From positions 86,792 to 150,791 of the forward strand of contig CAYLJX010000001.1 of NCBI GenBank assembly GCA_964384235.1: a stretch of DNA of 64,000 bases, read 5' to 3'. The translations under genes were made by a program, and so were the position numbers. The stretch's first letter is position 1. Every line of letters begins with the position of its first letter. The notes under the pieces were generated by a model. The model did no database searches and was not told the origin of the DNA. It was given only the letters and a program-made list of their open reading frames with translations. This DNA is from an uncultured Bdellovibrionales bacterium (GTDB lineage: Bacteria; Patescibacteriota; Minisyncoccia; Moranbacterales; UBA1568). This document shows, piece after piece, positions 2,420 through 61,399 of the stretch.

Positions 2420-2439
2420 GCGCTTTTTTTGAAACCACT

Positions 2440-3141: not shown

Positions 3142-3175
3142 GACAAGGACTTAGCTTGTAGCTGGTAGCTTGTAG

Positions 3176-3204: not shown

Positions 3205-3330
3205 CTTGTTTTCGGGTATACTGGTGGAAACAGTATACGGTATTATGTATGATGTATTAAGGGAACGCCCCGTGTGTTTTTCTGTATTTATACATGATAC
3301 GCAATACATGATACGTGATACCTCTTTAGA

Positions 3331-8062: not shown

Positions 8063-10150
8063 TTGCGACATATGACGCTCGAATACGTCCTGGCACTTTT
8101 CGTGCTGATGCTCATCTCGATGGGTGTGTTTTTCTTCGCCGGCCGCATCAAGGTGCCGTACACGGTGCTCCTGGTGCTCGTGGGATCGCTCCTGGTGCCG
8201 CTCTCTTCCGTGCCCGGTTTCCGTTTTCTCGGTGAGTTTCAGCTGACACCGGAGCTTCTCTTCTATATTTTCCTGCCCATCCTCATTTTCGAATCCGCCT
8301 ACAACATGCGGATACGGGAACTGCAGGAGAATATCCGTTCCGTCTCCTGGTTCGCGGTCGGCAGCCTCATCCTCTCGACGTTCTTCGTGGCGGGAGGGTT
8401 GTTCTTCGCTCTGCGGCTCATCGGTCTGGAGGTACCGTTCCTGGTGACGCTGCTCTTCGGGGCGCTCATTTCCGCGACCGATCCGGTAGCCGTTCTCGCA
8501 CTCTTCAAAGAGTTCGGGGTGCCGCGGCGGCTCTCGTTCATCTTCGAAGGAGAGAGTCTCTTCAACGACGGAACGTCACTAGCGGCCTTCCTCATCGTTC
8601 TGGAAGTCGTACTCAAGGGCTTCTCCGGAACGGGAACGGTTCTCGAGGGCGTTTTCATGTTTACGACGATGGTGGCGGGAGGCGTCGCGTTCGGTATCCT
8701 CATGGGGTTCCTCTTCGCGAAGCTCATCGAGAAGGCCGAGGGAAACGAGCATGTCGAGATCACGCTGACGCTTCTCGTCGCGCACCTGACATTCATCCTC
8801 TCCGAAGTGCTCTCGCACCATCTAGTGATCGCCGGTCAGGAGATCAAGTTCTCCTCCATCATCGCCACGGTCATGGCTTCCATGGTCATCGGCAATTACG
8901 GGCGTTCCAAACTGTCCGTCAAGACGGCGCACTTCATGGAGCGGTTCTGGGGGTACTTCGCCTTCGTGGCCAACTCCCTTGTCTTCATCACCATGGGACT
9001 CCTGTTCGCGAGCCTGCCGATCGATTTCGTGCCGTTCGTCGCGCCGATCCTGCTCGCGGTCTTCGTGGTGATGGTGGGCCGCGCCGTTTCCATCTATCCG
9101 GTCGCTGCCTGGCTCAACTTTTCCGGGAAGGAGAAGCGGATCCCGACCGCCTGGCAGCACCTCCTCGCCTGGGGGAGCCTGCGCGGGGCGCTCGCCGTCA
9201 CGATGGTGCTTCTCATTCCCGACGACCTGGTCCTGCCCGGCTGGCAGTATGACTTCACCATCAAGGAATTCATCACGGCGATCACCATCGGCTGCATCTA
9301 CTTCACGCTCTTCGTGAAGGCGACCACTATCGGGAGCATGATCAAACGCTACCGGTTGGACGCGCTGACGCCCACGGAACGGGCCGAGTATCACCAGAGC
9401 CGCACGTTCATCTTTTCGTACGCGCTGGAGAAGATCGGCGGTTTCCTCGAGAAGGGGTATGTGCCCGCCACGGTGCATGACCGGCTCGAGCGCGAGCTCA
9501 TGACGAAACGGGACGGGGAATATGCCGCCTGTGAAAAGATGCTCGGTCGGCGGTCGGAGGATTTCGAGCAGGCCCTGCGCATCTACGCGCTCGGCATCGA
9601 ACGCTACATCCTCAGGATGCTCTACCGTTTCGACGAGGTGAGCGAATCCGTCTACAAGAGGATCCTGACGAAGCTCGAGGTCCAGCAGGAACGGGTCGAG
9701 GAAGGCACTCCTCAGGTCCGGTCGCTCGATGAGCATTTCACGCCGGACTGGTTCGAACAGATGACCGGATTCGTCCGTTCCCGGTTGTTTCATCCGTCAG
9801 CGGAAGAATCCCTCAGGGAGCGATACATGTATTATCGGGCGCAGGAGATCATGGCCCGCAAGGCCGTCAAGGAATTAGGGAAGCTCAAGCACCGTTCCCG
9901 GCTGGAGTCGGAGATGTATTGCCGCGTGCTGGACGAGACGGTGGCCGCCTATCAGGCGTTTCATGATGACGCGCGGAAACGGACGGCGGAACTGGTCGCT
10001 GGAAACGGGACCGTCCTTCGGGAAATCGATCAGGAATTCGGACAGAGGAGCGTGAAGAAAGCGCTCGCGGAAGGACTGAACGAACTGACCCGCAAAGAAA
10101 TGCTTCCGTCCAAGCTTGCTGTCCTTTTGGAGGACGAGTTCGCGGGATAG
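8063..10150 (+). CDS. CPA1-family Na+/H+ (cation:proton) antiporter, NhaP-type, with a ~290-aa cytoplasmic C-terminal domain
   Basis: About 400 aa with 10-12 TM helices carrying antiporter motifs ('FEGESLFNDGTSLAAF', 'LSEVLSHHLVIAG'), then a charged soluble tail. Confidence 0.75.
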   Translation: MRHMTLEYVLALFVLMLISMGVFFFAGRIKVPYTVLLVLVGSLLVPLSSVPGFRFLGEFQLTPELLFYIFLPILIFESAYNMRIRELQENIRSVSWFAVGSLILSTFFVAGGLFFALRLIGLEVPFLVTLLFGALISATDPVAVLALFKEFGVPRRLSFIFEGESLFNDGTSLAAFLIVLEVVLKGFSGTGTVLEGVFMFTTMVAGGVAFGILMGFLFAKLIEKAEGNEHVEITLTLLVAHLTFILSEVLSHHLVIAGQEIKFSSIIATVMASMVIGNYGRSKLSVKTAHFMERFWGYFAFVANSLVFITMGLLFASLPIDFVPFVAPILLAVFVVMVGRAVSIYPVAAWLNFSGKEKRIPTAWQHLLAWGSLRGALAVTMVLLIPDDLVLPGWQYDFTIKEFITAITIGCIYFTLFVKATTIGSMIKRYRLDALTPTERAEYHQSRTFIFSYALEKIGGFLEKGYVPATVHDRLERELMTKRDGEYAACEKMLGRRSEDFEQALRIYALGIERYILRMLYRFDEVSESVYKRILTKLEVQQERVEEGTPQVRSLDEHFTPDWFEQMTGFVRSRLFHPSAEESLRERYMYYRAQEIMARKAVKELGKLKHRSRLESEMYCRVLDETVAAYQAFHDDARKRTAELVAGNGTVLREIDQEFGQRSVKKALAEGLNELTRKEMLPSKLAVLLEDEFAG

Positions 10151-20247: not shown

Positions 20248-20451
20248 AAGTTTTTTGTTTCTTTGTCGGATTAGCTGTATTATATATCAAACACGCTGAA
20301 ACGTATAAAAGTGTCGTTTTGAGTTTGTAAAGTCTGTAAAGTTCATAAAGTCTATAAAGTGTCTGGTCCTTGCTTTACGAACTTTAAAAACTTGATAAAC
20401 TTTATAGACTAGCCTGCCTTTTGAAGGAAAAGACCTTTAGAGAGCCATTTC

Positions 20452-22600: not shown

Positions 22601-24232
22601 TTACGCTTCGTTTACAAGCTTTCCTCCCAACGCTTCGAGGGCTTGGGCGATGAAGGAGTCGGAAGAGGAGGGTGTTTCCTTCGTCGAAGCGCTCTCCAGC
22701 ACGACGCGAAGTCTGGTTCGCGATCCCAAAATCGTATCAAAGGCCTTGCCGAGTGTCAATTGGTTGCCTGGTTCCTCAAGGCGCTCCTTGTGGAAGGGAT
22801 ATTTGACGGCGATGGTCACCGTCCCCGCTTCGGTCGAGACGGGTCGGGCGGTGGAGAGGGCGAGCGTGAGCGAGGCGTTCAGTCGTTTGGCGGTGTCGAG
22901 AATAGCCGCCCAGTTGTTCTGGATGGAACTGAGTTCGATGTCGGATTCTTTGGACCCGTTTGTTTTCTCGCTAAGGGACGAATCTGGATCCTGGATTCCC
23001 GCCTCCGCGGGAATGACAGAGGAAGAGGTTTTCTGTTGGTTGTTTTCTGTTGACTGTTCTTTGGTTTCCGTTGCTGTTTTTGTCTCAACTTTTTTTGGTG
23101 CTTCTGGTTTTCTTTCTCCTGCCTCCTGCCTCCTGCCTCCTGCCTCATTCGACAGTATTTTTACCACCGCTATCTCGATCGGTAGCTCCGGAATGACAGC
23201 GGTCTTCACCTGTGTCTGGGCGACCTGGAAGTGTTCGAGCATGCGCACGATCTCGTTCGGGGAAAAGGATTCGGCGAGTTCGGAGAGGTTTGAAACCTGT
23301 TCATCGGTGAGGTGGTCGAGCTCGAGGGGAGCGTGCTTCGGGTGAGCGGAAACCAAGAGGAGCTCGTGGAGGTAGTGGAGGAGTGCGCCGGAAAAGACGG
23401 CGATGTCGACACCATCCTGGGAGAGCTTGCCGATGAAGGAGAGCGCGCCGGAGAGATCGTTTTGCGCGATGAGACGGAGCAGTCCGGAGAGATTAGCCTT
23501 GGTCGTGGTGCCGAGGACTTCTATCACCTTGGCTTCGGTGATAGGGCTTTCCTCGAGGGCGGCGATCTGGGTGAGGAGGGACTCGGCGTCACGCATGCCG
23601 CCTTCGGCCGTGAGCGCGATCATCTCGAGGGCGCCTTTTTCGATTTTGAGTTTTTCTTCTTTGGCGATTTTTTCGAGCTTTCCGACGATCGATTTGACCG
23701 GGAAACGCGAGAGATCGAAGCGCTGACAACGCGAGACGATGGTATCCGGCACTTTGTGGAGCGCGGTGGTGGCGAGGATAAAGATGACGTGAGTGGGTGG
23801 CTCCTCGAGGGTCTTGAGAAGGGCGTTGAAGGCCCCGATGGAGAGCATATGCACCTCGTCGATGATGTAGATCTTGTGAGAGCCGAGGGTGGGCGGGAGC
23901 GCGACGGTCTCGCGGAGTTCGCGGATATTGTCGACACCGGTATGCGAGGCGGCGTCGATCTCGATGACGTCGAGCGAGCGCCCTTCGTTCATGAGGAGGC
24001 AGTGTTCACATTTTCCGCACGGTTCGAAACCGCGCCGGTCGGAGCAGTTGACGGCCTTGGCGAAGAGACGGGCGAGCGTCGTCTTGCCGGTACCGCGCGG
24101 CCCGGTGAAGAGATAGGCCTGGCCGACCCGGCCGAGCTTCAAGGCGTTCTCGAGAGTCGTGACGATGTGTTTCTGTCCGACGACATCGGCGAACGTCTGC
24201 GGACGGTACTTTCTATACAGGGTCGTGCTCAT
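22601..24232 (-). CDS. dnaX: DNA polymerase III subunit gamma/tau
   Basis: 'LYRKYRPQTFADVVGQKHIVTTLENALKLGRVGQAYLFTGPRGTGKTTLARLFAKAVNC', zinc module 'CGKCEHC', 'IYIIDEVHML'. The start is taken at MSTTLY. Confidence 0.9.
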   Translation of the reverse strand: MSTTLYRKYRPQTFADVVGQKHIVTTLENALKLGRVGQAYLFTGPRGTGKTTLARLFAKAVNCSDRRGFEPCGKCEHCLLMNEGRSLDVIEIDAASHTGVDNIRELRETVALPPTLGSHKIYIIDEVHMLSIGAFNALLKTLEEPPTHVIFILATTALHKVPDTIVSRCQRFDLSRFPVKSIVGKLEKIAKEEKLKIEKGALEMIALTAEGGMRDAESLLTQIAALEESPITEAKVIEVLGTTTKANLSGLLRLIAQNDLSGALSFIGKLSQDGVDIAVFSGALLHYLHELLLVSAHPKHAPLELDHLTDEQVSNLSELAESFSPNEIVRMLEHFQVAQTQVKTAVIPELPIEIAVVKILSNEAGGRRQEAGERKPEAPKKVETKTATETKEQSTENNQQKTSSSVIPAEAGIQDPDSSLSEKTNGSKESDIELSSIQNNWAAILDTAKRLNASLTLALSTARPVSTEAGTVTIAVKYPFHKERLEEPGNQLTLGKAFDTILGSRTRLRVVLESASTKETPSSSDSFIAQALEALGGKLVNEA

Positions 24233-28514: not shown

Positions 28515-30542
28515 ATGACTACCCAGTCCGATATCACATTTTTCGCCAAGACGAACTTCCGCAATCAGGAGCGGACGTTCGGTATCAAGACCGACGACCG
28601 ACGACGTCATATGTACGTCATCGGCAAGACCGGCATGGGCAAGACCAACCTCCTGGAGAACCTGGCCATCCAGGATATACAGAAGGGACACGGCATCGCC
28701 TTCATCGATCCGCACGGTGACACCGCGGAAAAGCTCATACGGGCGATTCCCGCGAGCCGCATCAACGACGTCATCTATTTCAATCCGGCCGACCAGGACT
28801 TTCCGATCGCCTTCAACGTGATGGAGAAGGTGAGTCCCGAGTACCGCCACCTGGTCGCTTCGGGTCTCGTCGGTGTCTTCAAGAAGCTCTGGGCTGACTC
28901 GTGGGGTCCGCGGCTCGAATACATTCTCCGAAACGCCATCATCGCGCTCCTCGAATACCCGGGTTCGACCCTTCTCGGCGTGACACGCATCCTCGTCGAT
29001 AAGTCCTACCGTGACCGCGTCGTGGAAAAGATCTCCGATCCGGTGGTGCGCTCCTTCTGGGTGGACGAGTTTTCCAAGTGGGACCCGCGCGTCCTTCAGG
29101 AAGTCATCTCGCCGATCCAGAACAAGGTCGGTCAGTTCCTCTCGAGCGCTCTCATCCGCAACATCGTCGGTCAGACGGTGTCGTCCTTCGACGTGCGCAC
29201 GATCATGGACGAGCGCAAGATCCTCATCATGAACCTCTCCAAGGGCCGCATCGGTGAGGACAACAGCGCACTCCTTGGCGCCATGATGATCACCAAGATC
29301 CAGCTCGCAGCCATGGGGCGTGTCGATATGCCGGAGGAGGAACGCAAGGACTTTTACCTCTATGTCGACGAGTTCCAGAACTTCGCGACGGAATCCTTCG
29401 CCAATATCCTCTCCGAGGCCCGCAAGTACCGCCTCAACCTCGTGCTCGCCAACCAGTACATCACGCAGATCGACGAGAAAGTGCGCGATGCCATCTTTGG
29501 AAACGCCGGGACACTCGTATCGTTCCGCGTGGGCGCCATGGACGCCGAAGCGCTCGAGAAGGAGTTCGAGCCGGTCTTCATGATGAACGATATCGTCAAT
29601 CTGCCGAAGTATCAGATCTACCTCAAGCTCATGATCGACGGTATCGCGGGGGACGCCTTCAGTGCGACGACTTTGCCGCCCATCGCGCTCCAGGATGGGG
29701 GTAACGAGGAAAAGATCATCCGGATTTCCCGCGAGCGCTATGCGACATCCAAGGCGGATGTGGAAGAAAAGATCCGCCGCTGGAGCGGCATGCTCACGCC
29801 GGAGGAAAAAGCGGCGCTCATCGAGACGGTGCAGAGTCCTCGTCCGAGACAGGAGGCACCCAGAAGGATGTCCGAAGAAAGTTTCCGGTCACCTCGTCCC
29901 GAGAGGAAAAACGCACCGCAGACTCCGATGACTCCTCGACCTCAGGCTGCTCCGAAGACCGTGCCGGTCGAAAAGCCTCAGGCGGAAGAGCGTGTCGAAA
30001 CAGGTACCCCGAAAGTTCAGCCGGAAGAACCGGCTCGTCCTGAACCAATTGAAGAAAAAACCGTTTCTCAGGAGACCGAGGAAAGAGTCGAAGAGATTTC
30101 CGGACAGGAGACTCATACGCGACCGCTCCCGGAAGAAGGGAAGCAGGAAGAACGACCGATGTACGCGGCGGTCTGCGCTTCCTGCGGGACCGAGATCGAG
30201 GTGCCGTTCAGGCCCGATGGCAAGCGCCCGACCTTCTGCAAGGACTGCCTGCGGGATTACCAGCGCGCCACTGCCAAGGTTCGTCGCGAGGTCGAAACCA
30301 AGCAGGCACCGGTCTCGCAACCTTCTGTCCAGCGATCATCACAACCGACCGATGTTCCTCCTCGTCCCCGCAAACAGGTGGTGAGGAGTACCTACGTGTC
30401 CGATCAGTCTCCCATCTCGCTTTCCCAGGTACAGCACATCGAGCCCAAGAAATTCAAAGCGCTCAAGAAGCGCCCCAGTGTCAATCTTGACGAGATTCGC
30501 GCGCTCCTCGACGATGCGAAGAAGAAGAACGATGCCGAATGA
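28515..30542 (+). CDS. VirD4/TraD/TrwB-like (type IV coupling protein) or HerA/FtsK-fold P-loop ATPase with a C-terminal CxxC...CxxC zinc ribbon
   Basis: Walker A 'VIGKTGMGKTN', 'IAFIDPHGD', 'IYFNP', 'LYVDEFQNFA', 'EARKYRLNLVLANQYITQID', 'GNAGTLVSFRVG'. Then a long linker and 'CASCGTEIEVPFRPDGKRPTFCKDC'. Confidence 0.65.
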   Translation: MTTQSDITFFAKTNFRNQERTFGIKTDDRRRHMYVIGKTGMGKTNLLENLAIQDIQKGHGIAFIDPHGDTAEKLIRAIPASRINDVIYFNPADQDFPIAFNVMEKVSPEYRHLVASGLVGVFKKLWADSWGPRLEYILRNAIIALLEYPGSTLLGVTRILVDKSYRDRVVEKISDPVVRSFWVDEFSKWDPRVLQEVISPIQNKVGQFLSSALIRNIVGQTVSSFDVRTIMDERKILIMNLSKGRIGEDNSALLGAMMITKIQLAAMGRVDMPEEERKDFYLYVDEFQNFATESFANILSEARKYRLNLVLANQYITQIDEKVRDAIFGNAGTLVSFRVGAMDAEALEKEFEPVFMMNDIVNLPKYQIYLKLMIDGIAGDAFSATTLPPIALQDGGNEEKIIRISRERYATSKADVEEKIRRWSGMLTPEEKAALIETVQSPRPRQEAPRRMSEESFRSPRPERKNAPQTPMTPRPQAAPKTVPVEKPQAEERVETGTPKVQPEEPARPEPIEEKTVSQETEERVEEISGQETHTRPLPEEGKQEERPMYAAVCASCGTEIEVPFRPDGKRPTFCKDCLRDYQRATAKVRREVETKQAPVSQPSVQRSSQPTDVPPRPRKQVVRSTYVSDQSPISLSQVQHIEPKKFKALKKRPSVNLDEIRALLDDAKKKNDAE

Positions 30543-30692: not shown

Positions 30693-31115
30693 ATGACTGG
30701 AGGCAAGCTTCTTGTCCGGGGAGTGATCGGAGGAGTGATCGTCCTGGTCGCCTGGGTGGCCTATGCTTCCTCCAAACAGATCGAACGGAACAAGGGTATC
30801 GAGAAGGAAGTGGCCGCGCTCCAGGCCGAAGCCGACAAGATCCGCCGGGAAAACGAGACCCTTTCCGAAAAGATCAGTTATTTTTCCTCATCGTCCTTTC
30901 AGGAACAGGAAGCCAAGAAGAAGCTCGGACTGCGGAAAGCCGATGAAAACGTCGCCGTGATACAGCCCCGGACAGTCGTGGAAGAAGAAAAGAACGAGGA
31001 ACAAACGACCATGGCCGGAGCCTCGTCTGCCGGCACGAGAGACCGGGACCATCTGCCGAATTACCGGAAGTGGTGGGAGAGATTTTTTTCGAATGAACAA
31101 GGAAAAGATATATGA
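30693..31115 (+). CDS. FtsB/DivIC/FtsL-family septum formation initiator
   Basis: N-terminal TM followed by the coiled coil 'KEVAALQAEADKIRRENETLSEKI', the typical architecture. Confidence 0.55.
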   Translation: MTGGKLLVRGVIGGVIVLVAWVAYASSKQIERNKGIEKEVAALQAEADKIRRENETLSEKISYFSSSSFQEQEAKKKLGLRKADENVAVIQPRTVVEEEKNEEQTTMAGASSAGTRDRDHLPNYRKWWERFFSNEQGKDI

Positions 31116-32161
31116 CGGAAACAGCGAAACAAGGAGCGAGGCGGATCAAATGGGGAACGATCGGACTCCTGGGACTTGTCGTCATCGGGGTGCTGTTCAT
31201 CGCGACCCTGGTCATGGTGTACGCGCTGCCGCGGTCGCAGGCTGAGAGCGTCGTGAACCGGTTCCCATACCCTGTCGCGGTCATCGGGTATCGTGAGGCT
31301 GTCACCCATCGGACACTCTCTGCCAATCTCGCGTCGGTCAGGAGTTTTTATGAGAATCAGGATTTTTCCAAGATCGGCATGCGTGTCGATTTCACCACCG
31401 AGGAAGGACAGAAGCGTCTCAAGGTGCGCGAGAAGGAGGTCCTCAACAAGATGATCGAGGACAAGGCGATCATGCTCCTCGCCAAGGAGCGAGGTATCCG
31501 GGTGAGCGACGAGAGCGTCCGTGAGGGGCTCCGGCGCAAGCTCGAAGAGTACGGCAGCGGGGAAGAAGTGAAAAAGAGCCTGGCTCGTCTGTATGGCTGG
31601 ACACTCTCCGATTTCGAGGAAAAAGTGGTCCTGCCGAGTCTCTACGAGGAAAAACTCCGCGAAAGTTTTCTCAAAGAAACTGACAATTCCAAGGCTGAAG
31701 ACAAGATCCGTTCCGCCCAGGAAGCGCTTCGTGGCGGCATGACGTTCGAGGATGTAGCGAAAAAATATTCAGAGGGAAAAACGGCCGATGAGGGAGGGGA
31801 ACTCGGATGGTATCGTCTCGGCGATCTGACACCCGAACTCCAGAAAGCCGTCGCGGCGCAGAAGAGTGGTGTGGCGGGGGATGTCGTGGAAAGCGACCTC
31901 GGTTTCCATATCGTCCTCGTCGAGGAGGTCAAGAAAGAGCAGGACACGTCGCTCTACCGACTGCGCCAGATTTTCATGAAGAAAACGATGTTCGCGGATT
32001 GGCTCTCGGAAAAGATGCGGCAGGTGTCCATCTTCATCCTTTCGCCCGAATACCGCTGGAATGCCGACGAGGCCCGGGCGGAATTCCGTGACAAACAGAT
32101 GATCGAATTCGAAAAGGAACTTTTCGAGAAAGCTCAGGGCGACGCGTCCTTTTTCTTCTAA
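31112..32161 (+). CDS. PpiC-type (parvulin) peptidyl-prolyl isomerase, PrsA/SurA-like, membrane-anchored
   Basis: N-terminal TM; parvulin domain 'GMTFEDVAKKYSEGKTADEGGELGWYRLGDLTPELQKAV...GFHIVLVEEV'. Confidence 0.75.
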   Translation: MTETAKQGARRIKWGTIGLLGLVVIGVLFIATLVMVYALPRSQAESVVNRFPYPVAVIGYREAVTHRTLSANLASVRSFYENQDFSKIGMRVDFTTEEGQKRLKVREKEVLNKMIEDKAIMLLAKERGIRVSDESVREGLRRKLEEYGSGEEVKKSLARLYGWTLSDFEEKVVLPSLYEEKLRESFLKETDNSKAEDKIRSAQEALRGGMTFEDVAKKYSEGKTADEGGELGWYRLGDLTPELQKAVAAQKSGVAGDVVESDLGFHIVLVEEVKKEQDTSLYRLRQIFMKKTMFADWLSEKMRQVSIFILSPEYRWNADEARAEFRDKQMIEFEKELFEKAQGDASFFF

Positions 32162-32212
32162 GCGTCGTATCTGTAGAAGGAGCTGATCATGGAGTTTTCT
32201 TTCTTCTTTTCC

Positions 32213-32393
32213 CTTCGAACGGAAGGCAAAGATTCCTTTTCGGAGTCTTGAAGATCCGAAAGCGGGCATGGTTCCGACTGACAAGGAGGAGAGTGAAGGA
32301 GCTTCAGGAGTGAGGGTGCACGCCTGCCCGCAGTGCTACAGCGTTGCAGGCGGGCCGGGCAACCGAGCGACTCCGAAAAGGGAGACTTTGCCT
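32213..32393 (+). repeat. MITE-like structured repeat, copy 1 (~180 bp; terminal inverted repeats TTTCGGAGTC / GACTCCGAAA)
   Basis: About 85% identical to the reverse complement of 44742-44898. Differs by a 25-30 bp internal indel ('ctgcccgcagtgctacagcgttgcaggcgg'). Confidence 0.6.
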
Positions 32394-32441
32394 GAAGAGA
32401 GTTGTACTAAAACGGGTAATCACTCTTAAAGTATCAATATC

Positions 32442-33728
32442 ATGGAAACACTTGAACCGATGCCGACAACCTCGCAAGAGACACCGAAACAGGAAAAGCG
32501 GATTTCCCGGGGACAGTACTTCGGGATGGTCGCGATCGCCCTCGTTTTCGGGTTCCTCGGAGGACTGATCGCACCCCGTCTTTCAGGGCTGTCCGATTTT
32601 CCCTTTCAACCCAAGAAAAAACAGGAAGTGAGACAGGAGACCGGGACGACTATCACGCCGCCCGTCTCGCTGGTGGCCGAGGATGATGCCGTCGTGAACG
32701 TCGTCGAGAAGAACTCGCCAGCCGTGGTGAGTATCGTCATCACCAAGGACGTGCCGCAGGTGCGCCGGTTCTTCAATACTCCCTTCGGCAACGGCTTCCC
32801 GTTCTTCAGTGATCCCTTTCAGAACGAGGATACTCAGGGAAACGGCAGGGGAGAGACACAGAAGCGGCAGGTCGGTTCCGGTTCAGGCTTCTTCGTTTCT
32901 TCCGACGGTCTCGTTGTGACCAACAAGCACGTGGCCTCCGACACCCAGGCCGATTACACGGTCATCACCACCGACGGCAAGGAATACCCGGCCAAGGTGC
33001 TCGCCCGCGATCCCAACAATGACATCGCCGTGCTCAAGGTGGAGGGCAAAGATTTCCCGGCACTCTCACTCGGTGATTCCGACGTGGTGAGGGTCGGTCA
33101 GACCGCCATCGTCATCGGTAACCCCTTGGGTGAGTTTGCCAACTCCGTTTCGCGCGGCATCATCTCGGGACTCAAGCGCAGTGTCACGGCCGGATCCGGC
33201 TTCGGCGATGAGGAGAAGCTCACCGGTATCATCCAGACGGACGCGGCCATCAATCCCGGCAACTCCGGCGGCCCGCTCCTCAACATTTCCGGGCAGGTCA
33301 TCGGCGTGAACGTCGCCATGGCACAGGGCGCGGAGAACATCGGTTTCGCTCTCCCTATCAATCAGGTCAAGCGCATCGTCGAACAGGTCCGCACCACCGG
33401 CAAGATCACCACGCCGTACATCGGTGTCCGCTATGTCCTCCTCAATGACGAGATCCAGAAGGAAAACAATCTCCCATACAACTACGGTGCGCTGGTGCTT
33501 CGTGGGCAGAATATGACGGACTTCGCGGTCATCCCGGGCTCGCCGGCCGACAAGGCGGGCATCGTCGAGAACGACGTCATCCTCGAGATCGGCGGCACCA
33601 AGGTGGACGAGGAACACCCCCTCGGCAACCTCATCGCCGAGCACAACGTCGGCGACGAGATCACGCTCAAACTCTGGCACAAAGGCGACACGAAGGACGT
33701 CAAAGTGAAACTAGAGGAGAGAAAGTGA
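32442..33728 (+). CDS. HtrA/DegP-family serine protease (S1C) with a PDZ domain, membrane-anchored
   Basis: 'GSGFFVSSDGLVVTNKHV' (His), 'DIAVLKV' (Asp), 'TDAAINPGNSGGPLLN' (Ser), and a C-terminal PDZ 'GSPADKAGIVENDVILEIGG'. Confidence 0.85.
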   Translation: METLEPMPTTSQETPKQEKRISRGQYFGMVAIALVFGFLGGLIAPRLSGLSDFPFQPKKKQEVRQETGTTITPPVSLVAEDDAVVNVVEKNSPAVVSIVITKDVPQVRRFFNTPFGNGFPFFSDPFQNEDTQGNGRGETQKRQVGSGSGFFVSSDGLVVTNKHVASDTQADYTVITTDGKEYPAKVLARDPNNDIAVLKVEGKDFPALSLGDSDVVRVGQTAIVIGNPLGEFANSVSRGIISGLKRSVTAGSGFGDEEKLTGIIQTDAAINPGNSGGPLLNISGQVIGVNVAMAQGAENIGFALPINQVKRIVEQVRTTGKITTPYIGVRYVLLNDEIQKENNLPYNYGALVLRGQNMTDFAVIPGSPADKAGIVENDVILEIGGTKVDEEHPLGNLIAEHNVGDEITLKLWHKGDTKDVKVKLEERK

Positions 33729-34277: not shown

Positions 34278-34304
34278 TTAGCACTCTCATGTTGAGATTG
34301 CTAA
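34278..34304 (+). promoter_or_regulatory. CIRCE element (HrcA operator) upstream of clpB
   Basis: 'TTAGCACTCtcatgttgaGATTGCTAA' against the consensus TTAGCACTC-N9-GAGTGCTAA (one mismatch). Confidence 0.6.
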
Positions 34305-34335: not shown

Positions 34336-34387
34336 AAGTGGAAAGTCTAAGTGGAAAGTCTAAGTGGAAAGTCTAAGTGGAAAGTCT
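34336..34387 (+). repeat. Four perfect tandem copies of the 13-bp unit 'AAGTGGAAAGTCT'
   Basis: Direct tandem repeat between the CIRCE element and the clpB promoter. It carries the same 'AAAGTC' core as the boxes at 34383-34457 and 20322-20410. Confidence 0.8.
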
Positions 34388-34457
34388 ATAAAGTTTATCA
34401 AGTACTATATACAAAGGACTTTCTTGGCTTTATTGAACTTTACAGACTTTACAAACT
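34383..34457 (+). promoter_or_regulatory. Putative operator: box1 'AGTCTATAAAGTTTATCAAGT' and box2 'GAACTTTACAGACTTTACAAACT' (heptad direct repeats), overlapping the clpB -35/-10 (TTGAAC-18-TATTAA)
   Basis: Both boxes recur with the same order and orientation relative to the minus-strand VIT1 operon, at 20322-20344 and 20390-20410. Confidence 0.45.
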
Positions 34458-34463
34458 ATTAAT

Positions 34464-37115
<2,652 letters not shown>

Positions 37116-42102: not shown

Positions 42103-43214
42103 AGATCGCGATTCAAGCTTCCGATCTTGATGCGCAGAGGATCGACGGGACGAGGGTGTATCTCAAGGAACTGCTCAGACGGTTCGGGACGTTGTCACCT
42201 GAGACGGATTTTTTCCTCTATCACAAGCATACTTTCAATCCTGTCCTGGAGCCGCCGAAGTTTCAGAATTATGAGGAGCGGGCGATTCCCTTTCCTAAGG
42301 CATGGATGCAGACGAGATTCGCATGGGAGATGTTTCGTACCCGTCCGGACAAACTTTTTCTCCCGATCCAAGCCGCGCCGCTCTTTCTTCCTTCCGGGAC
42401 GGACGTGACGGCGACCATCCATGACCTCGCCTTCAAACGGTATCCTGAGACGTTCCCGAAAGATCATCTCCGGAAACTCAACTTTCTCCTCGATGTCGTC
42501 GTGAAACGTGCAGACAAGCTCATTGCCGTTTCTGAATCGACCAAACGGGACCTTTTGGAATTTTTCCCCAAACTTTCCGAGGATAAGATCCGTGTTATTC
42601 ATCACGGCTTCGATGGCGACTTTTTCGGGAAAAGGCTCTCCTCGGAAGAAATTTCCGAAGAGCTCGAAAGCTACAAGCTACCAGCTACCAGCTATATCCT
42701 TTATGTCGGTGCCCTCCAGCCTCGTAAGAATCTCATCCGTCTCATTGAAGCGTTCAATATTGCCAAGAAGAGCGTACCTGACATGAGGTTGGTTCTTGCT
42801 GGTGAACCGGCTTGGCTCTCGGAGGGTATTCTCCAAGCGAGAGAGAAGAGCCCGTACAAAGACGATATCATTCTGACCGGGAGAGTCTCATTCAAGGATC
42901 TGCGTGCGTTGTATCAGGGTGCGAGATTCTTCGTGTTCCCGTCGCTCTACGAGGGGTTCGGTCTGCCGCTCCTCGAAGCGTTCGCTTCCGGGACACCGGT
43001 CCTCACCGCCGACAACTCAAGTCTCTCCGAAGTGGCCGGCCGCGGCGCGCTCTATTGCGACGCGCAGAGTGTCGAGGACATGGCCGAAAAAATGGAGCGC
43101 CTCTGGAAGGACGAAACGCTCCGAAACGGACTCGTCGAGCGTGGCACGGACCGTCTCAAGGGTTTCTCCTGGGACACATGCGCCAAAGAGACGCTGGAAT
43201 ATATTCTCAGGTAG
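42099..43214 (+). CDS. GT4-family glycosyltransferase
   Basis: 'ILYVGALQPRKNLIRLIEAF', 'FVFPSLYEGFGLPLLEAFASGTPVLTADNSSLSEVAG'. Confidence 0.85.
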   Translation: MKIAIQASDLDAQRIDGTRVYLKELLRRFGTLSPETDFFLYHKHTFNPVLEPPKFQNYEERAIPFPKAWMQTRFAWEMFRTRPDKLFLPIQAAPLFLPSGTDVTATIHDLAFKRYPETFPKDHLRKLNFLLDVVVKRADKLIAVSESTKRDLLEFFPKLSEDKIRVIHHGFDGDFFGKRLSSEEISEELESYKLPATSYILYVGALQPRKNLIRLIEAFNIAKKSVPDMRLVLAGEPAWLSEGILQAREKSPYKDDIILTGRVSFKDLRALYQGARFFVFPSLYEGFGLPLLEAFASGTPVLTADNSSLSEVAGRGALYCDAQSVEDMAEKMERLWKDETLRNGLVERGTDRLKGFSWDTCAKETLEYILR

Positions 43215-43279: not shown

Positions 43280-44737
43280 ATGGCGAAAGACCAGGTAGTA
43301 ATGAGATTCGATAACGTGTCCTTCGAATATGGGCACAAGAAACCGATCCTTGATGAGGTGAGCTTCAGCGTGCGAAGCGGAGCCAAACTCACCCTCATGG
43401 GACAGAACGGCGCGGGAAAGAGCTCGCTCTTCAAGCTCATCACCAGGGAACAGGAACCGCAGTCCGGCCGCATCTCCATCGACCGTGACGCCACGGTGGC
43501 GATCGCCCGGCAGGTCATTCCGCGTGAAAAACTCACCCTGACCGTAGAAGAGTTCTTCGCTGATCATTTCCCCGGCAAGGAATGGGAACTCCCTCCGGCC
43601 ATCAAGGACGTGCTCGCGGTCGTGCACATGCCCGTGCCGCCTCTGGACAAGAAGATGAACGAGTTTTCCGGCGGCCAGCAGGCGAGACTCCTTCTCGCGT
43701 CGGCGCTCATCCAGGATCCGGACATCCTCCTCCTCGACGAACCGACCAATAACCTCGACTACGAAGGCATCGCGCATCTCACGCAGTTCCTCGTCGACTA
43801 TCACAAGACCGTCATCGTCATCTCGCACGACGCGGAATTCCTCAATGCCTTCACGCAGGGAGTCCTCTACCTTGATGTCTTCACGCACAACATCGAGCAG
43901 TACACCGGTAATTACTACGACGTGGTCGAGGATATCAAACGCCGTATCGAAAAGGAACAGAGCGAGAACGTCCGTTTGGAACGCACCATCAAGGAAAAGA
44001 AAGAGCAAGCCAACGTCTTCGCCAACAAGGGTGGGAAACTGCGTGCCGTGGCCAAGCGCATGCGTGACCTCGCGACTGAGCTCGAAGAGAACAAGGTGGA
44101 CATCCGTCAGGAAGACGCGACGCTCCCGTCCTTCGAGATCGTCTGTCAGGACATCGTCGGGCCGATCGTAGAAATCAAGACCGTATCGCTCATCCTCGAG
44201 ATGGGTCCGGCGGTCAAACAGGTCGGTCTGACACTGAAGCGCAACACACACCTCCTCGTCTCGGGACGAAACGGCATCGGCAAGAGTACGTTCCTCGAGG
44301 CGCTCGCTTCAGGCGATACCGAACGCGCTGCCATCACGCCCGGCGTAAAGGTCGGGTACTACCGGCAGGATTTCTCGACGCTCGACTTCGACAAGACCGT
44401 CGCCGAGACACTTCTCGACGTGACGAAGGACAAGAGCATGGAAACCGTCTATCGGGTAGCGGCGAAGTTTCTCCTGCCGGCGGAGCTCGTCCAGAACCAG
44501 GTCGGGAGCCTCTCGGAAGGACAGAAGGGCCTCCTCATGTTCGCGTATCTGTTTCTCCAGGAACCGGAACTCCTGATCCTCGACGAACCGACCAATCACA
44601 TCAACTTCCGTCACATCCCGGTCATCGCCGAAGCGCTCGATAAGTACAAGGGGACGATGATCTTCGTCTCGCACGTGCCCGATTTCGTCGCGCAAATCCG
44701 CATCGACGAAGTCCTCGACCTCGAGTCCTTATCTTAA
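43280..44737 (+). CDS. ABC-F family ATPase (two ABC domains, no TMD)
   Basis: 'LMGQNGAGKSSLFKLI', 'FSGGQQARLLLASALIQDPDILLLDEPTNNLD', second cassette 'VSGRNGIGKSTFLEAL', 'LSEGQKGLLMFAYLFLQEPELLILDEPTNHI'. Start taken at MAKDQV; the longer track ORF overlaps the upstream GT4. Confidence 0.85.
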   Translation: MAKDQVVMRFDNVSFEYGHKKPILDEVSFSVRSGAKLTLMGQNGAGKSSLFKLITREQEPQSGRISIDRDATVAIARQVIPREKLTLTVEEFFADHFPGKEWELPPAIKDVLAVVHMPVPPLDKKMNEFSGGQQARLLLASALIQDPDILLLDEPTNNLDYEGIAHLTQFLVDYHKTVIVISHDAEFLNAFTQGVLYLDVFTHNIEQYTGNYYDVVEDIKRRIEKEQSENVRLERTIKEKKEQANVFANKGGKLRAVAKRMRDLATELEENKVDIRQEDATLPSFEIVCQDIVGPIVEIKTVSLILEMGPAVKQVGLTLKRNTHLLVSGRNGIGKSTFLEALASGDTERAAITPGVKVGYYRQDFSTLDFDKTVAETLLDVTKDKSMETVYRVAAKFLLPAELVQNQVGSLSEGQKGLLMFAYLFLQEPELLILDEPTNHINFRHIPVIAEALDKYKGTMIFVSHVPDFVAQIRIDEVLDLESLS

Positions 44738-44741
44738 TCTT

Positions 44742-44898
44742 TCTCCCTCGCGGTCAAGTCTTTCCTTTCGGAGTCGCTCGGTTGCCCGGCGTGCAACCTC
44801 ACTCCTGAAGCTCCTTTGTTCTCCCGCCTCTGGCGGAATCCATGCCCGCTTTCGGATCTTCAAGACTCCGAAAGAAAAGCTTGGCCTTCCGGTCGAAA
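44742..44898 (-). repeat. MITE-like structured repeat, copy 2 (inverted relative to copy 1)
   Basis: Its reverse complement aligns over ~155 nt with 32213-32393, including the terminal inverted repeats 'TTTCGGAGTC...GACTCCGAAA'. Confidence 0.6.
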
Positions 44899-45023
44899 CT
44901 AAAGATGTGAAGAAAAAATAAGGAGACTAATGGATCTCGTAATAGGAAAATGGATTTTAGAAAAGAAAAAAGCGCCGGTGGTGTGGATAACCACGGGCGC
45001 TCCAATTGATGGAAAGGAATCGG

Positions 45024-45728
45024 TCAAAAGTTGACCTTCTGAAACTTGATCCCGTCCGGCAGGAACTTGTTACGCAAGGCCTCGCTCAGATGTTCGCGGA
45101 TTTCTTCTTCCTTTTTGTCATAGGCTTCTCGGCTGGACCATGTCAGGCTGACGTCTGATCCCGAGAATTGCCGCCGCACCTCCTCGAGGAAGACTGTCCT
45201 GACTTCGGTGCATACGTCGTCATCTTTCCAGTACTTTGCGTAGGACTTGTAACCGTCCACTCGTTTGAGATGCACCGCCCATGGCCAAGGAGGACCCGAA
45301 AGTTCAAATCGTATCGTCCCGTTGATGTAGAAGTAATAGTTGCTGTTGCATTGCAGTTCGGGTGCCAATCGGGAGACTTTGTTGAACCCATAGATGAGAT
45401 CGATAGCCCCGAAAGGGAGCTCGCGAATCGTGCCATCGTCCAGGCGTGTCGCTGGCACCGTACCGAACATCGCCGGATACGTGATGAGCAGAGGGTGGAA
45501 GAGTCCGACAACGAAGAGAATGACGGTGATGGTCCCGCTGAGGATACCGAACATTTTCCTCTGGATGTCCGAGTACAGATAGTTTCTCTTTTCTTCGTCG
45601 AGTCCGTACTTCTTCGACTCGATTACACGGTCGATCTTGAACGCGAGTACACAGAAGCCGACAAAAACGACGAACCAGATGATGAAGAGGATGAATCCGG
45701 TAAGAGTGAATCCGGTAAGAGTGGACAT
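45024..45728 (-). CDS. Hypothetical membrane-anchored protein, possibly SPFH/band-7-like
   Basis: N-terminal TM with a 15-bp tandem duplication encoding FTLTGFTLTG. The C-terminal soluble domain has weak band-7 resemblance. A perfect sigma70 promoter (TTGACA-17-TATAAT) lies upstream at 45830-45858. Confidence 0.35.
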   Translation of the reverse strand: MSTLTGFTLTGFILFIIWFVVFVGFCVLAFKIDRVIESKKYGLDEEKRNYLYSDIQRKMFGILSGTITVILFVVGLFHPLLITYPAMFGTVPATRLDDGTIRELPFGAIDLIYGFNKVSRLAPELQCNSNYYFYINGTIRFELSGPPWPWAVHLKRVDGYKSYAKYWKDDDVCTEVRTVFLEEVRRQFSGSDVSLTWSSREAYDKKEEEIREHLSEALRNKFLPDGIKFQKVNF

Positions 45729-51485: not shown

Positions 51486-52708
51486 AATTGCTTCTTATCA
51501 AAATCGGCAAGGCGTGGCATACGCTCCGACGCGAAGGGTTGGTCCGGGGCGGCCGGCGTGTCCTGACCGCGTTTCTCGCGCTCTTCGGACGGGTGAAGCC
51601 GGGCGATATCCTCTTCATCACGGGCGGGGTGGGGGACAGCGCGCGGTATCGATGCCAGCACGTGGCGGAAGAACTCGAACAGCATGGTTTTCGGACGGCG
51701 GTGACGGTGCAGGATAATCCGTTCCTTGCTTCGTATGCCGATCGGTTTTCGATTTTTGTGTTCCATCGAGTTCTCTTTACGCCGAGTGTCGCCAAACTTG
51801 TCGGACGGATCAAGGAGAAACAGAAAACGATCATCTTCGAAACGGACGATCTCGTCTATGACAAGGCGTTCCTTCAGCATATGGACTACTTCAGGCAGAT
51901 GAATACGTTCGAGCGCAAGCTCTACGAGAACGGCGTGGGCGGGGAGATCTTGGCCGATCCGTACGTGGAGGTCTGCACGACATCGACGACGTACCTCGCG
52001 AACAAGCTGCGGGAGAAAGGCAAACGGGTGTATATCGTTCCGAACAAGCTTTCAAAAGAGGACGTTGCAAATGTTGAAAAGATCCTCTCTTCTTGTCATT
52101 CCGACCGTAGTGGAGGAATCTCGAGATCCCTCGGCGATGCTCGGGATGACACGGTAGTGCGCGTCAGCTATCTTTCCGGCACGCCGAGTCACAACAAGGA
52201 TTTCGCGACGATCACGGACGCGCTCGCGACGCTTTTGGAAAAGTATCCGAACCTCCGTCTGGTGCTGGCTGGGCCGCTCGATACCGATGATCGGTTGCAG
52301 CATTTCGCCTCACAGATCGAGCGCCTGCCCTACGTGCCGCGTCGGGAATACTTCGGAAATGTCGCCCGGATGGATATCAATGTCGCACCCCTTGAGATCG
52401 GCAATCCCTTTTGTGAGTCGAAGTCCGAGCTCAAGTTTTTCGAAGCAGGTATCTGCGGCGTGCCGACGGTGGCCGCGGCGACACAGACCTTTCGTGAGGC
52501 GATCCGGGACGGCGAGGACGGGTTCGTCGCGAGCAATACCGAAGAATGGCGAGACAAGATCGAACGATTGATCGTCGATGCTGATTTACGAAAGACAATG
52601 GGGCAGAGAGCCCGCGAAACAGCCTCTGAAAAATACACGACGACAAGCGCGAAGAACGAAGCATACTATGAATATCTAAGATCATCGGTTAACCGGCTAA
52701 AAAGTTAA
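51482..52708 (+). CDS. Glycosyltransferase (GT1/GT4-like C-terminal domain)
   Basis: 'LRLVLAGP', 'INVAPLEIGNPFCESKSELKFFEAGICGVPTVAAATQTFREAIRDGEDGFVA'. The start ATG overlaps the upstream stop (ATGA). Confidence 0.7.
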   Translation: MKLLLIKIGKAWHTLRREGLVRGGRRVLTAFLALFGRVKPGDILFITGGVGDSARYRCQHVAEELEQHGFRTAVTVQDNPFLASYADRFSIFVFHRVLFTPSVAKLVGRIKEKQKTIIFETDDLVYDKAFLQHMDYFRQMNTFERKLYENGVGGEILADPYVEVCTTSTTYLANKLREKGKRVYIVPNKLSKEDVANVEKILSSCHSDRSGGISRSLGDARDDTVVRVSYLSGTPSHNKDFATITDALATLLEKYPNLRLVLAGPLDTDDRLQHFASQIERLPYVPRREYFGNVARMDINVAPLEIGNPFCESKSELKFFEAGICGVPTVAAATQTFREAIRDGEDGFVASNTEEWRDKIERLIVDADLRKTMGQRARETASEKYTTTSAKNEAYYEYLRSSVNRLKS

Positions 52709-52721
52709 CAGGTTAACAGGT

Positions 52722-53117
52722 TTGAATATGAAGATCAACCGATTTGAAGATTTGAATGTATGGAAATCGAGTGTTGGTTTAACAAAGACGATTTATGATC
52801 TTACAGCAAAAGAAAAGTTCTCTAGAGATTTTGGTTTGCGAGATCAGATTCGGAGAGCAGTAGTCTCGATAAGTTCGAACATCGTAGAAGGATTTGAAAG
52901 AAGTAGTAATAATGAGTTTATACGATTTTTAAAAATAGCTAAGGGTTCGGCAGGAGAAGTAAGGAATCAACTTCATATTGCTTATGCGGTAGGATATATG
53001 ACGGAAAAGGAATTCGACGAGGTTTATGAGGAAGTTGAACTGTTGACGAAGCAAATTGGAGCATTCGTGAATTACTTGGAAAGCAAGAGGCTATCCGGAG
53101 AATTCGTAAGAAAATAA
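52722..53117 (+). CDS. Four-helix-bundle protein (23S-rRNA-intervening-sequence protein family), low-GC
   Basis: 131 aa 'FEDLNVWKSSVGLTKTIYDLT...VSISSNIVEGFER...AKGSAGEVRNQLHIA' matches the family signature. Flanked by GTTAAC-rich spacers. Confidence 0.65.
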   Translation: MNMKINRFEDLNVWKSSVGLTKTIYDLTAKEKFSRDFGLRDQIRRAVVSISSNIVEGFERSSNNEFIRFLKIAKGSAGEVRNQLHIAYAVGYMTEKEFDEVYEEVELLTKQIGAFVNYLESKRLSGEFVRK

Positions 53118-59983: not shown

Positions 59984-61399
59984 ATGACGAAAACAAAAAC
60001 AAAGGAAAAGCGTCTGAGCATGCTCTCGGCGCTGATGATCGTTTTTCTGTCGTTCGGCGCGTTCGTCGCCGCGGCTTCTATCGTGAGTAAGAATCAGTCA
60101 GGGACGACACTTTTCTCGCTTGCAAGCGATGGAGAGGATGATGATGACGATGAAGAGGATGACGATGAGGACGAGGACGATGATGAAGATAAAGACGAGG
60201 ATGAGGACGATGATAAGGCTGAAAAGGAAGCCAAGAAGAAGGCTGAAAAGGAACGCGAGGCTGCCAAGAAAAAATTAGAGAAGGAACGTGAGGCCGCCAA
60301 GAAGAAAGCCGAATGGGAGCGGGAGGCCGCCAAGAAGCAGACTGAGCTTCTGAAAGCGGGTTCTTCTTCGGAAATGGAAGTCGAAGGTGATGAACTTGAA
60401 GACGTGGACGAAGCGGAAGATGAGGATGAGAACGAGGGTGGCGACCACGGTATGTTCAAGGACCGCTTGAAGACGATCGAGAAGCTTCAAAAAAGGATAG
60501 CGGAGGCCGAGAAAGAGATCGCCGAGAAGCAGGCCGAAGGAGTGGACGTATCGGCAGCCCTTGCCCGTCTCGCTTCGGCCAAGGCTGCTGTCACGGGTGT
60601 CGAAGGGGCGTTTGATGCGAGCAATCTCGATGAAGTGAAGCGTTTGAGTCTGGAGGCTCAGAAGCTCGCGCACTTTGCCAAGGAAAAAGATCTCCATGAT
60701 GCCAAGGAAGTGGCCAAGGATACCCAAAAGGTAGGGAAGCGCATCGCTCAGGTCAAGGAGAAACTCGCGAAGCTCAAAGCTCTCGGAGGCGACGCGACTT
60801 CCTTTGACTCGCAGCTTGCGGCGGTGGAACAGTCGTTTGCCGATGCCAAGATGCTCATCAGTCAGGGAGGGACGGATCTCACGAACGGTCTCGCGATGCT
60901 TGAGAGTGCGGAACGGGCGGCCAAGAATCTCAAGGACAACATCGAAAGCGCCATCCTGGCGCTCGGTGGCGAGGATGACGAGTTGGATGACGACCACAAG
61001 AGCGAGGTAGCGTTGTTCGTGGAGCGTCTGCATGAGATCGCGGACATCGAGGAAGGCGGTATCGGGGCACAGGTGCGCGAAGTGGCCAAGGCTCAGAACG
61101 CTTCGGCCGAGAAGGTGAGTGTGCTCATGAACGATACCGAGGAAAGGGGTGATGTGGCGGAATTCGTCCTCGGACCGAATTACGACGATCTGGACGATAT
61201 CAAGGAAGAAATCGCTGCTAATAGCGTGCGCATCGATATCCTCACCCGTGCCGCGGCGCAGGTGGAGGACGCGGACGTGCAGACGATGCTCGCCGAGCAG
61301 GCGGAAGCCCTCCGTCAGGAGAACCTGAAGCTCCAGAACTTCGTCGACTCCAAGACGGAACAAGCGAGCCTCTTCGGTTGGTTCCTCCAGTTGTTCTAA
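59984..61399 (+). CDS. Membrane-anchored/secreted poly-acidic coiled-coil protein (D/E tract, 'EKEREAAKKK' repeats, long alpha-helical region)
   Basis: Signal anchor 'LSMLSALMIVFLSFGAFVAAASIV'. Then about 45 consecutive D/E, three K/E repeats, and ~350 aa with heptad-like periodicity. Confidence 0.55.
   Translation: MTKTKTKEKRLSMLSALMIVFLSFGAFVAAASIVSKNQSGTTLFSLASDGEDDDDDEEDDDEDEDDDEDKDEDEDDDKAEKEAKKKAEKEREAAKKKLEKEREAAKKKAEWEREAAKKQTELLKAGSSSEMEVEGDELEDVDEAEDEDENEGGDHGMFKDRLKTIEKLQKRIAEAEKEIAEKQAEGVDVSAALARLASAKAAVTGVEGAFDASNLDEVKRLSLEAQKLAHFAKEKDLHDAKEVAKDTQKVGKRIAQVKEKLAKLKALGGDATSFDSQLAAVEQSFADAKMLISQGGTDLTNGLAMLESAERAAKNLKDNIESAILALGGEDDELDDDHKSEVALFVERLHEIADIEEGGIGAQVREVAKAQNASAEKVSVLMNDTEERGDVAEFVLGPNYDDLDDIKEEIAANSVRIDILTRAAAQVEDADVQTMLAEQAEALRQENLKLQNFVDSKTEQASLFGWFLQLF

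Follow-up and report, generated by a model that had tools for sequence, protein, structure and literature searches.

A prokaryotic MITE (miniature inverted-repeat transposable element) is shorter than 500 bp, has neither transposase nor conserved open reading frame (ORF), carries terminal inverted repeats (TIRs) of about 4 to 30 bp and, at least when young, flanking direct repeats, and occurs in several dispersed copies (PMC10969869). Evidence of mobility is also expected, as empty and occupied sites or as a partner insertion sequence (IS) with matching ends, and an AT-rich element in an AT-rich intergenic target is typical, not obligatory (PMC10969869). Among the described palindromic repeats, ERIC varies widely in copy number between host genomes (PMC10969869) and in Yersinia changes the stability of the mRNAs that carry it (PMC10969869, PMC2649163). 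Correia elements of Neisseria (CREE/NEMIS) are co-transcribed with neighbouring genes, and in the resulting mRNA RNase III binds or cuts the stem formed by the TIRs (PMC2649163, PMC10969869). QMITE2 of Coxiella burnetii has TIRs of 23 to 29 bp around a core of 113 to 145 bp, lies mostly in 3' untranslated regions and gives a transcript with a very stable fold (PMC10969869), and REPs (20 to 40 nt, GTAG/CGTC heads) are mobilised by RAYT transposases (PMC3733652). For the Candidate Phyla Radiation (CPR)/Patescibacteria, a full-text literature search turned up no account of repeat families that are MITE-like or structured. Here, we describe two inverted copies of a structured, non-coding repeat in a 64,000-nt stretch (the window) of contig CAYLJX010000001.1 (assembly GCA_964384235.1, positions 86,792 to 150,791). 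Our best reading is that both belong to a small family of MITE-like palindromic interspersed repeats, non-coding and specific to one lineage, whose nearest counterparts in kind are ERIC, Correia/CREE and Coxiella QMITE. The kind of element is well known, whereas the sequence family is new and has no sequence relation to ERIC, Correia, QMITE or REP.

Copy 1 (32214-32397, plus strand, 184 nt; 174 bits with covariance model R1) lies in the 280-nt spacer between a SurA-like PPIase gene (31112-32161, plus strand), past whose stop codon it starts by 53 nt, and htrA (32442-33728, plus strand). Copy 2 (44747-44898, minus strand, 152 nt; 182 bits with R1) lies between an ABC-F gene (43280-44737, plus strand, with its true start at 43280) and a convergent 234-aa gene of unknown family (45024-45728, minus strand), and its end lies 10 nt past the ABC-F stop when the plus strand is read. 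Both copies were located where a previous sequence-only reading of the window had put them, inverted relative to each other and bracketing 12.5 kb; their limits are refined here by alignment, and the 5' limit of copy 1 (32214) was set from an assembly breakpoint at 32243. Identity between the copies, earlier estimated at about 85%, is 83% counting the indel and 90% without the insert of copy 1. That insert, a hairpin within the loop of the second inner helix (P3), had been recognised already and given as 25 to 30 bp; it measures 32 nt (32322-32353), and its sequence occurs once in the window. Three exact shared blocks, TTTCGGAGTCTTGAAGATCCGAAAGCGGGCATGG (34 nt), AAGGAGCTTCAGGAGTGAGG (20 nt) and GCCGGGCAACCGAGCGACTCCGAAA (25 nt), each occur twice in the 64-kb window, once per strand, where shuffles expect 0. 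No third copy was found in the 64-kb window, either by a whole-window repeat search or with R1. The element has a G+C content of 56 to 58% in a window of mostly 52 to 59%, and its T-rich part is confined to the 5' flank: a pyrimidine-rich tract (32195-32213, plus strand, in copy 1; 44899-44916, minus strand, in copy 2; about 58% similar between copies), which either forms the outer edge of the element or marks a target that it prefers.

Both copies share one architecture, in which an outer 4-bp helix (P0) and a closing stem (P1) surround a three-way junction with two hairpins (P2 and P3). P1, inside P0, is an imperfect TIR of 23 to 24 bp with one bulge and, in both copies, a perfect inner part of 13 to 15 bp; the 10-bp terminal repeat noticed previously (TTTCGGAGTC...GACTCCGAAA) is real and makes up just the inner part of this longer repeat. 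In copy 1 (plus strand), the 5' arm of P1 (32225-32247; GGCAAAGATTCCTTTTCGGAGTC) pairs with the 3' arm (32369-32392; GACTCCGAAAAGGGAGACTTTGCC) through 22 pairs and one bulge, in both the minimum free energy (MFE) and the consensus folds. The arms in copy 2 (minus strand) are at 44864-44886 (GGCCAAGCUUUUCUUUCGGAGUC) and 44752-44775 (GACUCCGAAAGGAAAGACUUGACC), with three base pairs changed on both sides relative to copy 1 and still paired. The adjoining segment of copy 1 (32248-32309, plus strand) consists of the 7-nt junction strand UUGAAGA followed by the P2 hairpin domain, and P2 of copy 2 (44803-44856, minus strand) ends in the tip hairpin UUCCGCC-AGA-GGCGGGA. Within P2, the tip varies and the base does not, and a conserved block rich in purines (AAGGAGCUUCAGGAGUGAGG), which resembles a Shine-Dalgarno (SD) sequence, makes up the 3' side. 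P3 occupies 32310-32368 in copy 1 (plus strand; GGGUGC/GCAACC), where it carries the insert, and 44776-44802 in copy 2 (minus strand; GGUUGC/GCAACC). Two internal hairpins that had been ascribed to both copies are seen in full in copy 2 only, where ccgcc-aga-ggcgg is present and ggttgc..gcaacc is perfect; in copy 1, the former is replaced by a weaker hairpin that differs in sequence, and the latter has one G.A mismatch.

On the strand that is plus in copy 1 and minus in copy 2 (hereafter, the sense strand), the MFE is -85.5 kcal/mol (z = -5.1) for copy 1 and -69.8 kcal/mol (z = -4.7) for copy 2, and none of 200 shuffles folded as well. The opposite strand reaches -68.2 (z = -3.7) and -57.4 kcal/mol (z = -3.6), so that the sense strand folds better than its complement by 12 to 17 kcal/mol in both copies; the fold is kept when the whole spacer (296 nt) is folded. 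As a separate observation, the last codons of the PPIase gene (GAATTCGAAAAGGAACTTTT, 32105-32124) are 80% complementary to part of the copy 1 5' arm (32228-32247) and resemble its 3' arm. The PPIase 3' end may therefore pair alternatively with that arm; the FEKEL peptide is conserved in relatives, and the complementarity is perhaps a coincidence.

The element is non-coding and belongs to no known family. Short ORFs cross both copies, in frames that differ between the copies owing to indels; an exact look-up of these ORFs in a collection of 15 billion proteins found none of them, and a six-frame translation of both copies, concatenated, had no match at an E value of 10 or below among 5.8 billion protein clusters. 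Rfam 15 gave a tRNA elsewhere as the sole match in the whole window at the gathering threshold, and at E values up to 10 the two element regions had chance-level matches, well under the family cut-offs. The sequence-only reading had named a duplicated gene fragment and a known Rfam family as the two outcomes that would tell against it, and neither was encountered.

Several specific identities were considered and rejected. A small protein gene does not fit reading frames that differ between the copies. A tRNA-derived element was rejected since ARAGORN detected no tRNA-like signal in the element, and a retron non-coding RNA was rejected as well. The junction UUGAAGA resembles the CUGANGA of a hammerhead-like core; the GAAA and UH elements of such a core are absent, and there is no Rfam match. 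In diversity-generating retroelements, which are common in CPR, mismatches are confined to the adenines of one repeat, the variable repeat lies in a coding gene, and a reverse transcriptase is encoded nearby. Here, the differences between the copies include C/T, T/G and paired two-sided changes, both copies are intergenic, and no reverse transcriptase was found in the window, so that a template/variable repeat pair was rejected. An integron attC site is an imperfect palindrome of 57 to 141 nt with R''/R' core sites (RYYYAAC/GTTRRRY), in a cassette array beside intI. The element has GGCAAAG/CTTTGCC ends and a length of 152 to 184 nt, its housekeeping neighbours are syntenic with those of relatives, and no integrase was found, and this identity was rejected too.

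Comparison of the two copies hints that selection acts on the RNA fold. Of the 48 modelled pairs, 14 differ between the copies: four carry changes on both sides, every one of them still paired (AU>CG, CG>UA and UA>CG in P1; UA>CG at the P2 tip), seven are changed on one side and keep pairing through G.U, and three are mismatched in one copy. The variation falls in the stem tips and P1, and the sequences of junction and loops are 100% conserved. A second, independent line of evidence comes from pairs that are wobbles on one strand and A.C mismatches on the other: nine favour the sense strand and one the opposite. A strain single-nucleotide polymorphism at 44817 in copy 2 (contig L102) turns a U-A pair of P2 into U.G and adds a tenth wobble for the sense strand; the bias of 10 in 11 has a one-sided binomial probability of about 0.006. 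Seen in both copies despite their opposite chromosomal orientation, the bias argues against a mutation bias of replication or transcription and for an RNA made from that strand.

The same data bear on a different explanation, in which the copies would be stand-alone structured small RNA genes, present in several copies with promoters of their own, whose three-way-junction RNA acts in trans by binding protein or by pairing of the SD-like block with pyrimidine-rich RNA. It would account for the 10-to-1 strand asymmetry of the wobble pairs, the retained pairing at all four two-sided changes, the better fold of the same strand in both copies despite their opposite genomic orientation, and the invariant junction and loops beside variable stem tips and P1; copy 2, moreover, lies past a terminator, and any sense-strand expression there needs its own promoter. 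Scans, however, detected no sigma-70-like promoter near either copy and no U-tract terminator after it (CPR promoters being poorly known), and the sequences upstream of the copies have just the pyrimidine-rich tract in common. The element is also missing from all relatives examined, including the syntenic ones, copy 1 lies inside what is an operon spacer in relatives, and a near-perfect 24-bp closing stem with an optional 32-nt insert is more typical of MITE-type repeats. On balance, stand-alone small RNA genes are possible and rather unlikely. A functional, previously undescribed three-way-junction CPR RNA that has spread as a repeat, with invariant junction and loop nucleotides, an SD-like block and a fold under selection, we regard as distinctly doubtful; such an RNA could bind protein, sequester ribosomes or anti-SD-like sequences, or process itself, and would be more than a passive palindrome. 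The structured RNA proposed in the sequence-only reading thus gains from the compensatory changes and the strand-asymmetric G.U excess, and loses from the lack of any detected promoter or terminator of its own.

That the element is a lineage-specific repeat rests on its empty sites in relatives. HtrA homologues place the window, which comes from an uncultivated bacterium, in Patescibacteria, in Candidatus Moranbacteria (Moraniibacteriota); HtrA of the nearest relatives is 67 to 69% identical over its full length and up to 73% identical in partial matches. In L105 (a 43-kb Logan contig), the gene order of the window is kept from dnaX through the ABC-F gene, minus an amino-acid-kinase-family gene and IspH/LytB, and the element is missing from both sites: the PPIase-htrA spacer is 33 nt long, and the spacer after ABC-F is 28 nt. 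The PPIase-htrA spacer of other relatives is about 55 nt (L003), about 20 nt (L106) or 49 nt (L107), so that copy 1 sits within what looks like an operon spacer of 20 to 55 nt in relatives. Since both sites are short and empty in syntenic relatives, the two copies represent two independent lineage-specific insertions. In the Moranbacteria metagenome-assembled genome CAVURJ01 (L004), the PPIase-htrA spacer is an unrelated 170-nt sequence (9781-9949), which is itself hairpin-rich (z = -2.2) and unrepeated in its 21-kb locus.

Homologue searches likewise returned nothing outside this organism. R1, scanned over 655 kb in total (the window and about 590 kb of related loci), had no match in the 36 related Patescibacteria loci that make up the latter, nor in L105, L106 and L107; blastn and nhmmer did not find the element in 77 loci. 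A 23-mer had 0 matches in 185,579 species genomes, and a 20-mer had one match in JGI metagenomes, by chance, inside a 390-aa ORF. Four patterns searched in IMG/VR gave one match, a chance 18-mer in coding-looking sequence that R1 does not match, and blastn against phage and plasmid collections gave nothing; the searchable DNA collections did not include the genome that holds the window.

The collinearity with L105 also bears on a role at the DNA level, in which the hairpin or cruciform would be a site of recombination or inversion, an attC-like site or an insulator that binds protein, and the RNA fold would be incidental. Such a role would suit inverted copies that flank a 12.5-kb gene block, an inverted repeat that can form on either strand (opposite-strand z of -3.6 to -3.7) and the absence of expression signals from our scans. 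Gene order and orientation between the copies, however, are collinear with L105 and record no inversion, no integrase or recombinase was found nearby, the ends are unlike the core sites of attC and the element is longer than attC, and a symmetric DNA hairpin leaves the wobble bias of 10 versus 1 unexplained. We therefore regard a DNA-level element as very unlikely, and a composite transposon or inversion module was rejected, the window being collinear with L105.

Further copies elsewhere in the genome are suggested by the ends of public contigs. The same organism is present in at least 10 public runs, with 0 to 3 mismatches over kilobases (Logan contigs, k = 31, 1 to 17 kb). Contigs carrying the PPIase gene end at 32243 in seven runs, a contig carrying htrA starts at 32355, and contigs carrying the ABC-F gene end at 44795 in six runs; contigs carrying the 234-aa gene end at 44844 in four runs, exactly as the shared 34-mer predicts. 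The other visible copy differs at 32214-32243, 32355-32384 and 44766-44795, so these three 30-mers would have to recur at some other locus; a single additional copy is enough to account for the three anomalous breakpoints, which points to at least one more. Such a copy would have outer arms like those of copy 1 and a P3 like that of copy 2, without the insert, and its shared sequence would stop at 32214, excluding the pyrimidine-rich flank of copy 1. Other breaks, at 34365 within a tandem array of 13-nt units and at 63869 within the H-box of a histidine kinase, serve as a control and indicate that contig breaks mark any repeated 30-mer. The latter break, at the right end of the window, was considered as a further copy and rejected, as it corresponds to the conserved H-box. 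The element thus explains the fragmentation of this organism's public assemblies at these two spots.

Measured against the described families, the element resembles a MITE in being small and non-coding (152 and 184 nt, frames not conserved, no protein match) and in its long imperfect TIRs (23 to 24 bp in both copies). As to dispersal, two copies were seen in 64 kb and breakpoints in six to seven runs suggest at least one more; as to mobility, both sites are empty in syntenic relatives and occupied in all strains of this organism sampled. It departs from a MITE in its base composition and in showing no target-site duplication, and no partner transposase was found. With ERIC/IRU of Enterobacteriaceae and Vibrionaceae (about 127 bp) it shares the form of a non-coding imperfect palindrome in intergenic regions (transcribed ones in ERIC, and probably so here), in either orientation, with longer variants made by internal insertion at fixed sites. 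There is, however, no sequence similarity: ERIC is one long imperfect hairpin, whereas the element is a branched three-way junction, and ERIC is shared across genera, whereas the element was found in one lineage with a small CPR genome, apparently in very few copies. Correia elements match it in size (about 100 to 160 bp), in enclosing inverted repeats (about 26 bp), in gene-adjacent insertion and probably in co-transcription, but carry an IHF site, ends that form promoters and TA target duplications, features not found for the element, and occur in hundreds of copies per genome, against at least three inferred here. The dimensions of QMITE2 are nearly equal to those of the element; QMITE2 differs in its direct repeats of 7 to 9 bp (none seen for the element), in sequence and in its unrelated hosts. 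REP/BIME are likewise palindromic repeats between genes of one operon, but the element is 150 to 185 nt long and branched, and no RAYT was seen.

Several observations weigh against this reading or parts of it. Direct reading of the sequence found no direct repeat abutting any plausible boundary of either copy, the relatives being too diverged (HtrA 67 to 69%) to place the insertion point to the base; old MITE copies can lose their target-site duplications. The element, at 56 to 58% G+C, is not AT-rich. None of the scanned window ORFs is a transposase, integrase or reverse transcriptase, and a fuzzy TIR search over all fetched loci found no IS whose ends match the element. All strains sampled carry both copies with identical sequence, and recent mobility is not evident. 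The extra copy is deduced from contig ends, and two of the three anomalous breakpoints, though not the third (44795), could instead come from a variant of copy 1 with a deletion in the population. As to the fold, the pairing comparison involves two sequences, its observed value is reached in 34 of 500 shuffle-control trials (about 1 in 16), and P2 base and P3, being invariant, are uninformative in it. The sense strand of copy 2, finally, lies behind a good intrinsic terminator, and its transcription would need read-through or a promoter, and no promoter was detected. We call the element MITE-like rather than a MITE because no target-site duplication is visible, AT-richness is lacking and no partner transposase was found.

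The position of both copies close behind stop codons (53 nt after the PPIase gene; 10 nt after ABC-F on the plus strand) also raises a terminator or attenuator of the upstream genes, namely PPIase for copy 1 and, for copy 2, either the 234-aa gene or ABC-F (opposite strand). In favour are the high stability of the stem and ABC-F's lack of another obvious terminator. Yet no U-tract follows P1 on either strand: on the strand that folds better, the T-rich tract lies 5' of the stem, and on the other it is an A-tract. The element is also absent from the output of a terminator scan. For the 234-aa gene, a canonical intrinsic terminator is already in place (44958-45002, minus strand; a GC-rich hairpin and UUUUUUCUUUUC), about 45 nt upstream of copy 2 on the element sense strand, and the 20- to 55-nt PPIase-htrA spacing of relatives leaves no room for one, which suggests an operon not wanting a terminator. 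A terminator function is thus highly improbable, and with the missing U-tract the terminator or insulator offered in the sequence-only reading finds no support.

We think it somewhat probable that the element is a palindromic repeat of the MITE or ERIC type and that, once transcribed, it works in cis, either as an RNase III site or as a stable stem-loop. Our confidence is higher in an interspersed palindromic repeat inserted in this lineage, and lower in the RNase III step. The element would enter short spacers just past housekeeping genes by means of a mobility function that is probably supplied in trans and, once within a transcription unit, would be transcribed together with the neighbouring genes, copy 1 in the PPIase-htrA message. 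The transcript would fold into the 23- to 24-bp closing stem, three-way junction and two hairpins, and its most likely effect, if it has any, would be on the host mRNA: it could block exonucleases as a stable 3' stem-loop, or, as a double-stranded substrate of RNase III, it could separate the fate of the upstream cistron from that of the downstream one. REPs inside operons can protect upstream mRNA and set differential expression. An RNase III site is proposed because RNase III cuts duplexes like the near-perfect 23- to 24-bp P1 and the window encodes an RNase III (1909-3141, plus strand; Pfam PF14622, PF00636 and PF00035, RNase III domain plus double-stranded RNA-binding domain), which would be the candidate trans-acting nuclease for the P1 stem; cleavage of the element is suggested by analogy with Correia. 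If transcribed, copy 1 could reshape the expression of protein-quality-control genes, and its insertion between PPIase and htrA shows that such elements colonise small, streamlined CPR/Patescibacteria genomes. The RNase III itself is 410 aa long, with its domains at residues of about 200 to 406 behind an N-terminal extension of about 190 aa that has no Pfam match.

The remainder of the window is of housekeeping character, encoding RNase HII, RNase III, SMC, dnaX, a sigma-70-like factor, a VirD4-like ATPase, DivIC, the SurA-like PPIase, two HtrA, two ClpB-type ATPases, a class II aminoacyl-tRNA synthetase, IspH, glycosyltransferases and ABC-F. The VirD4/TrwB-like coupling-protein ATPase (28515-30542, plus strand), which has a C-terminal treble-clef zinc finger, stands among these genes, and its unchanged position in the syntenic L105 suggests that it is chromosomal and does not belong to a mobile element. 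Just beyond copy 2 comes a 34-aa ORF (MDLVIGKWILEKKKAPVVWITTGAPIDGKESVKS; 44930-45034, plus strand), which has a good Shine-Dalgarno sequence (AAGGAG) and overlaps with the convergent 234-aa gene's terminator; the gene calls of Logan and ENA contigs include it.

Upstream of clpB (34464-37115), by about 160 nt, lies a CIRCE-like operator (TTAGCACTC-N9-GATTGCTAA, 34278-34304), which suggests HrcA-type heat-shock control of clpB in this Moranbacterium. Between this site and clpB is a perfect 13-nt tandem array (AAGTGGAAAGTCT, 4.1 units, 34336-34388), and after it come two short arrays of nonamers, inverted in orientation (34381-34409 and 34436-34457). Public contigs built with k = 31 break here, L001 ending at 34365. 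Many more short tandem arrays (units of 7 to 9 nt, 3 to 4.6 copies) are present, mostly in spacers, each with its own unit and often as inverted pairs (21-53/67-92, 3152-3175, 3290-3321, 20328-20404, 23116-23146, 37093-37124/37205-37233, 42668-42694 and 52687-52722). One such pair, GAATCAT (4.6 units) and TGATTCT (4.1 units), flanks a terminator-like hairpin after clpB, and the unit TAGCTTG at 3152 has its complement at 42668. A homologue of the "23S rRNA intervening-sequence protein" (PF05635, E = 5e-36; 52722-53117, plus strand) is a free-standing gene within a glycosyltransferase/sugar-epimerase cluster, far from any rRNA. A 471-aa ORF (59984-61399, plus strand), without a Pfam match, contains long acidic (D/E) and K/E/A-rich stretches that are tandem repeats at the DNA level (60127-60337).

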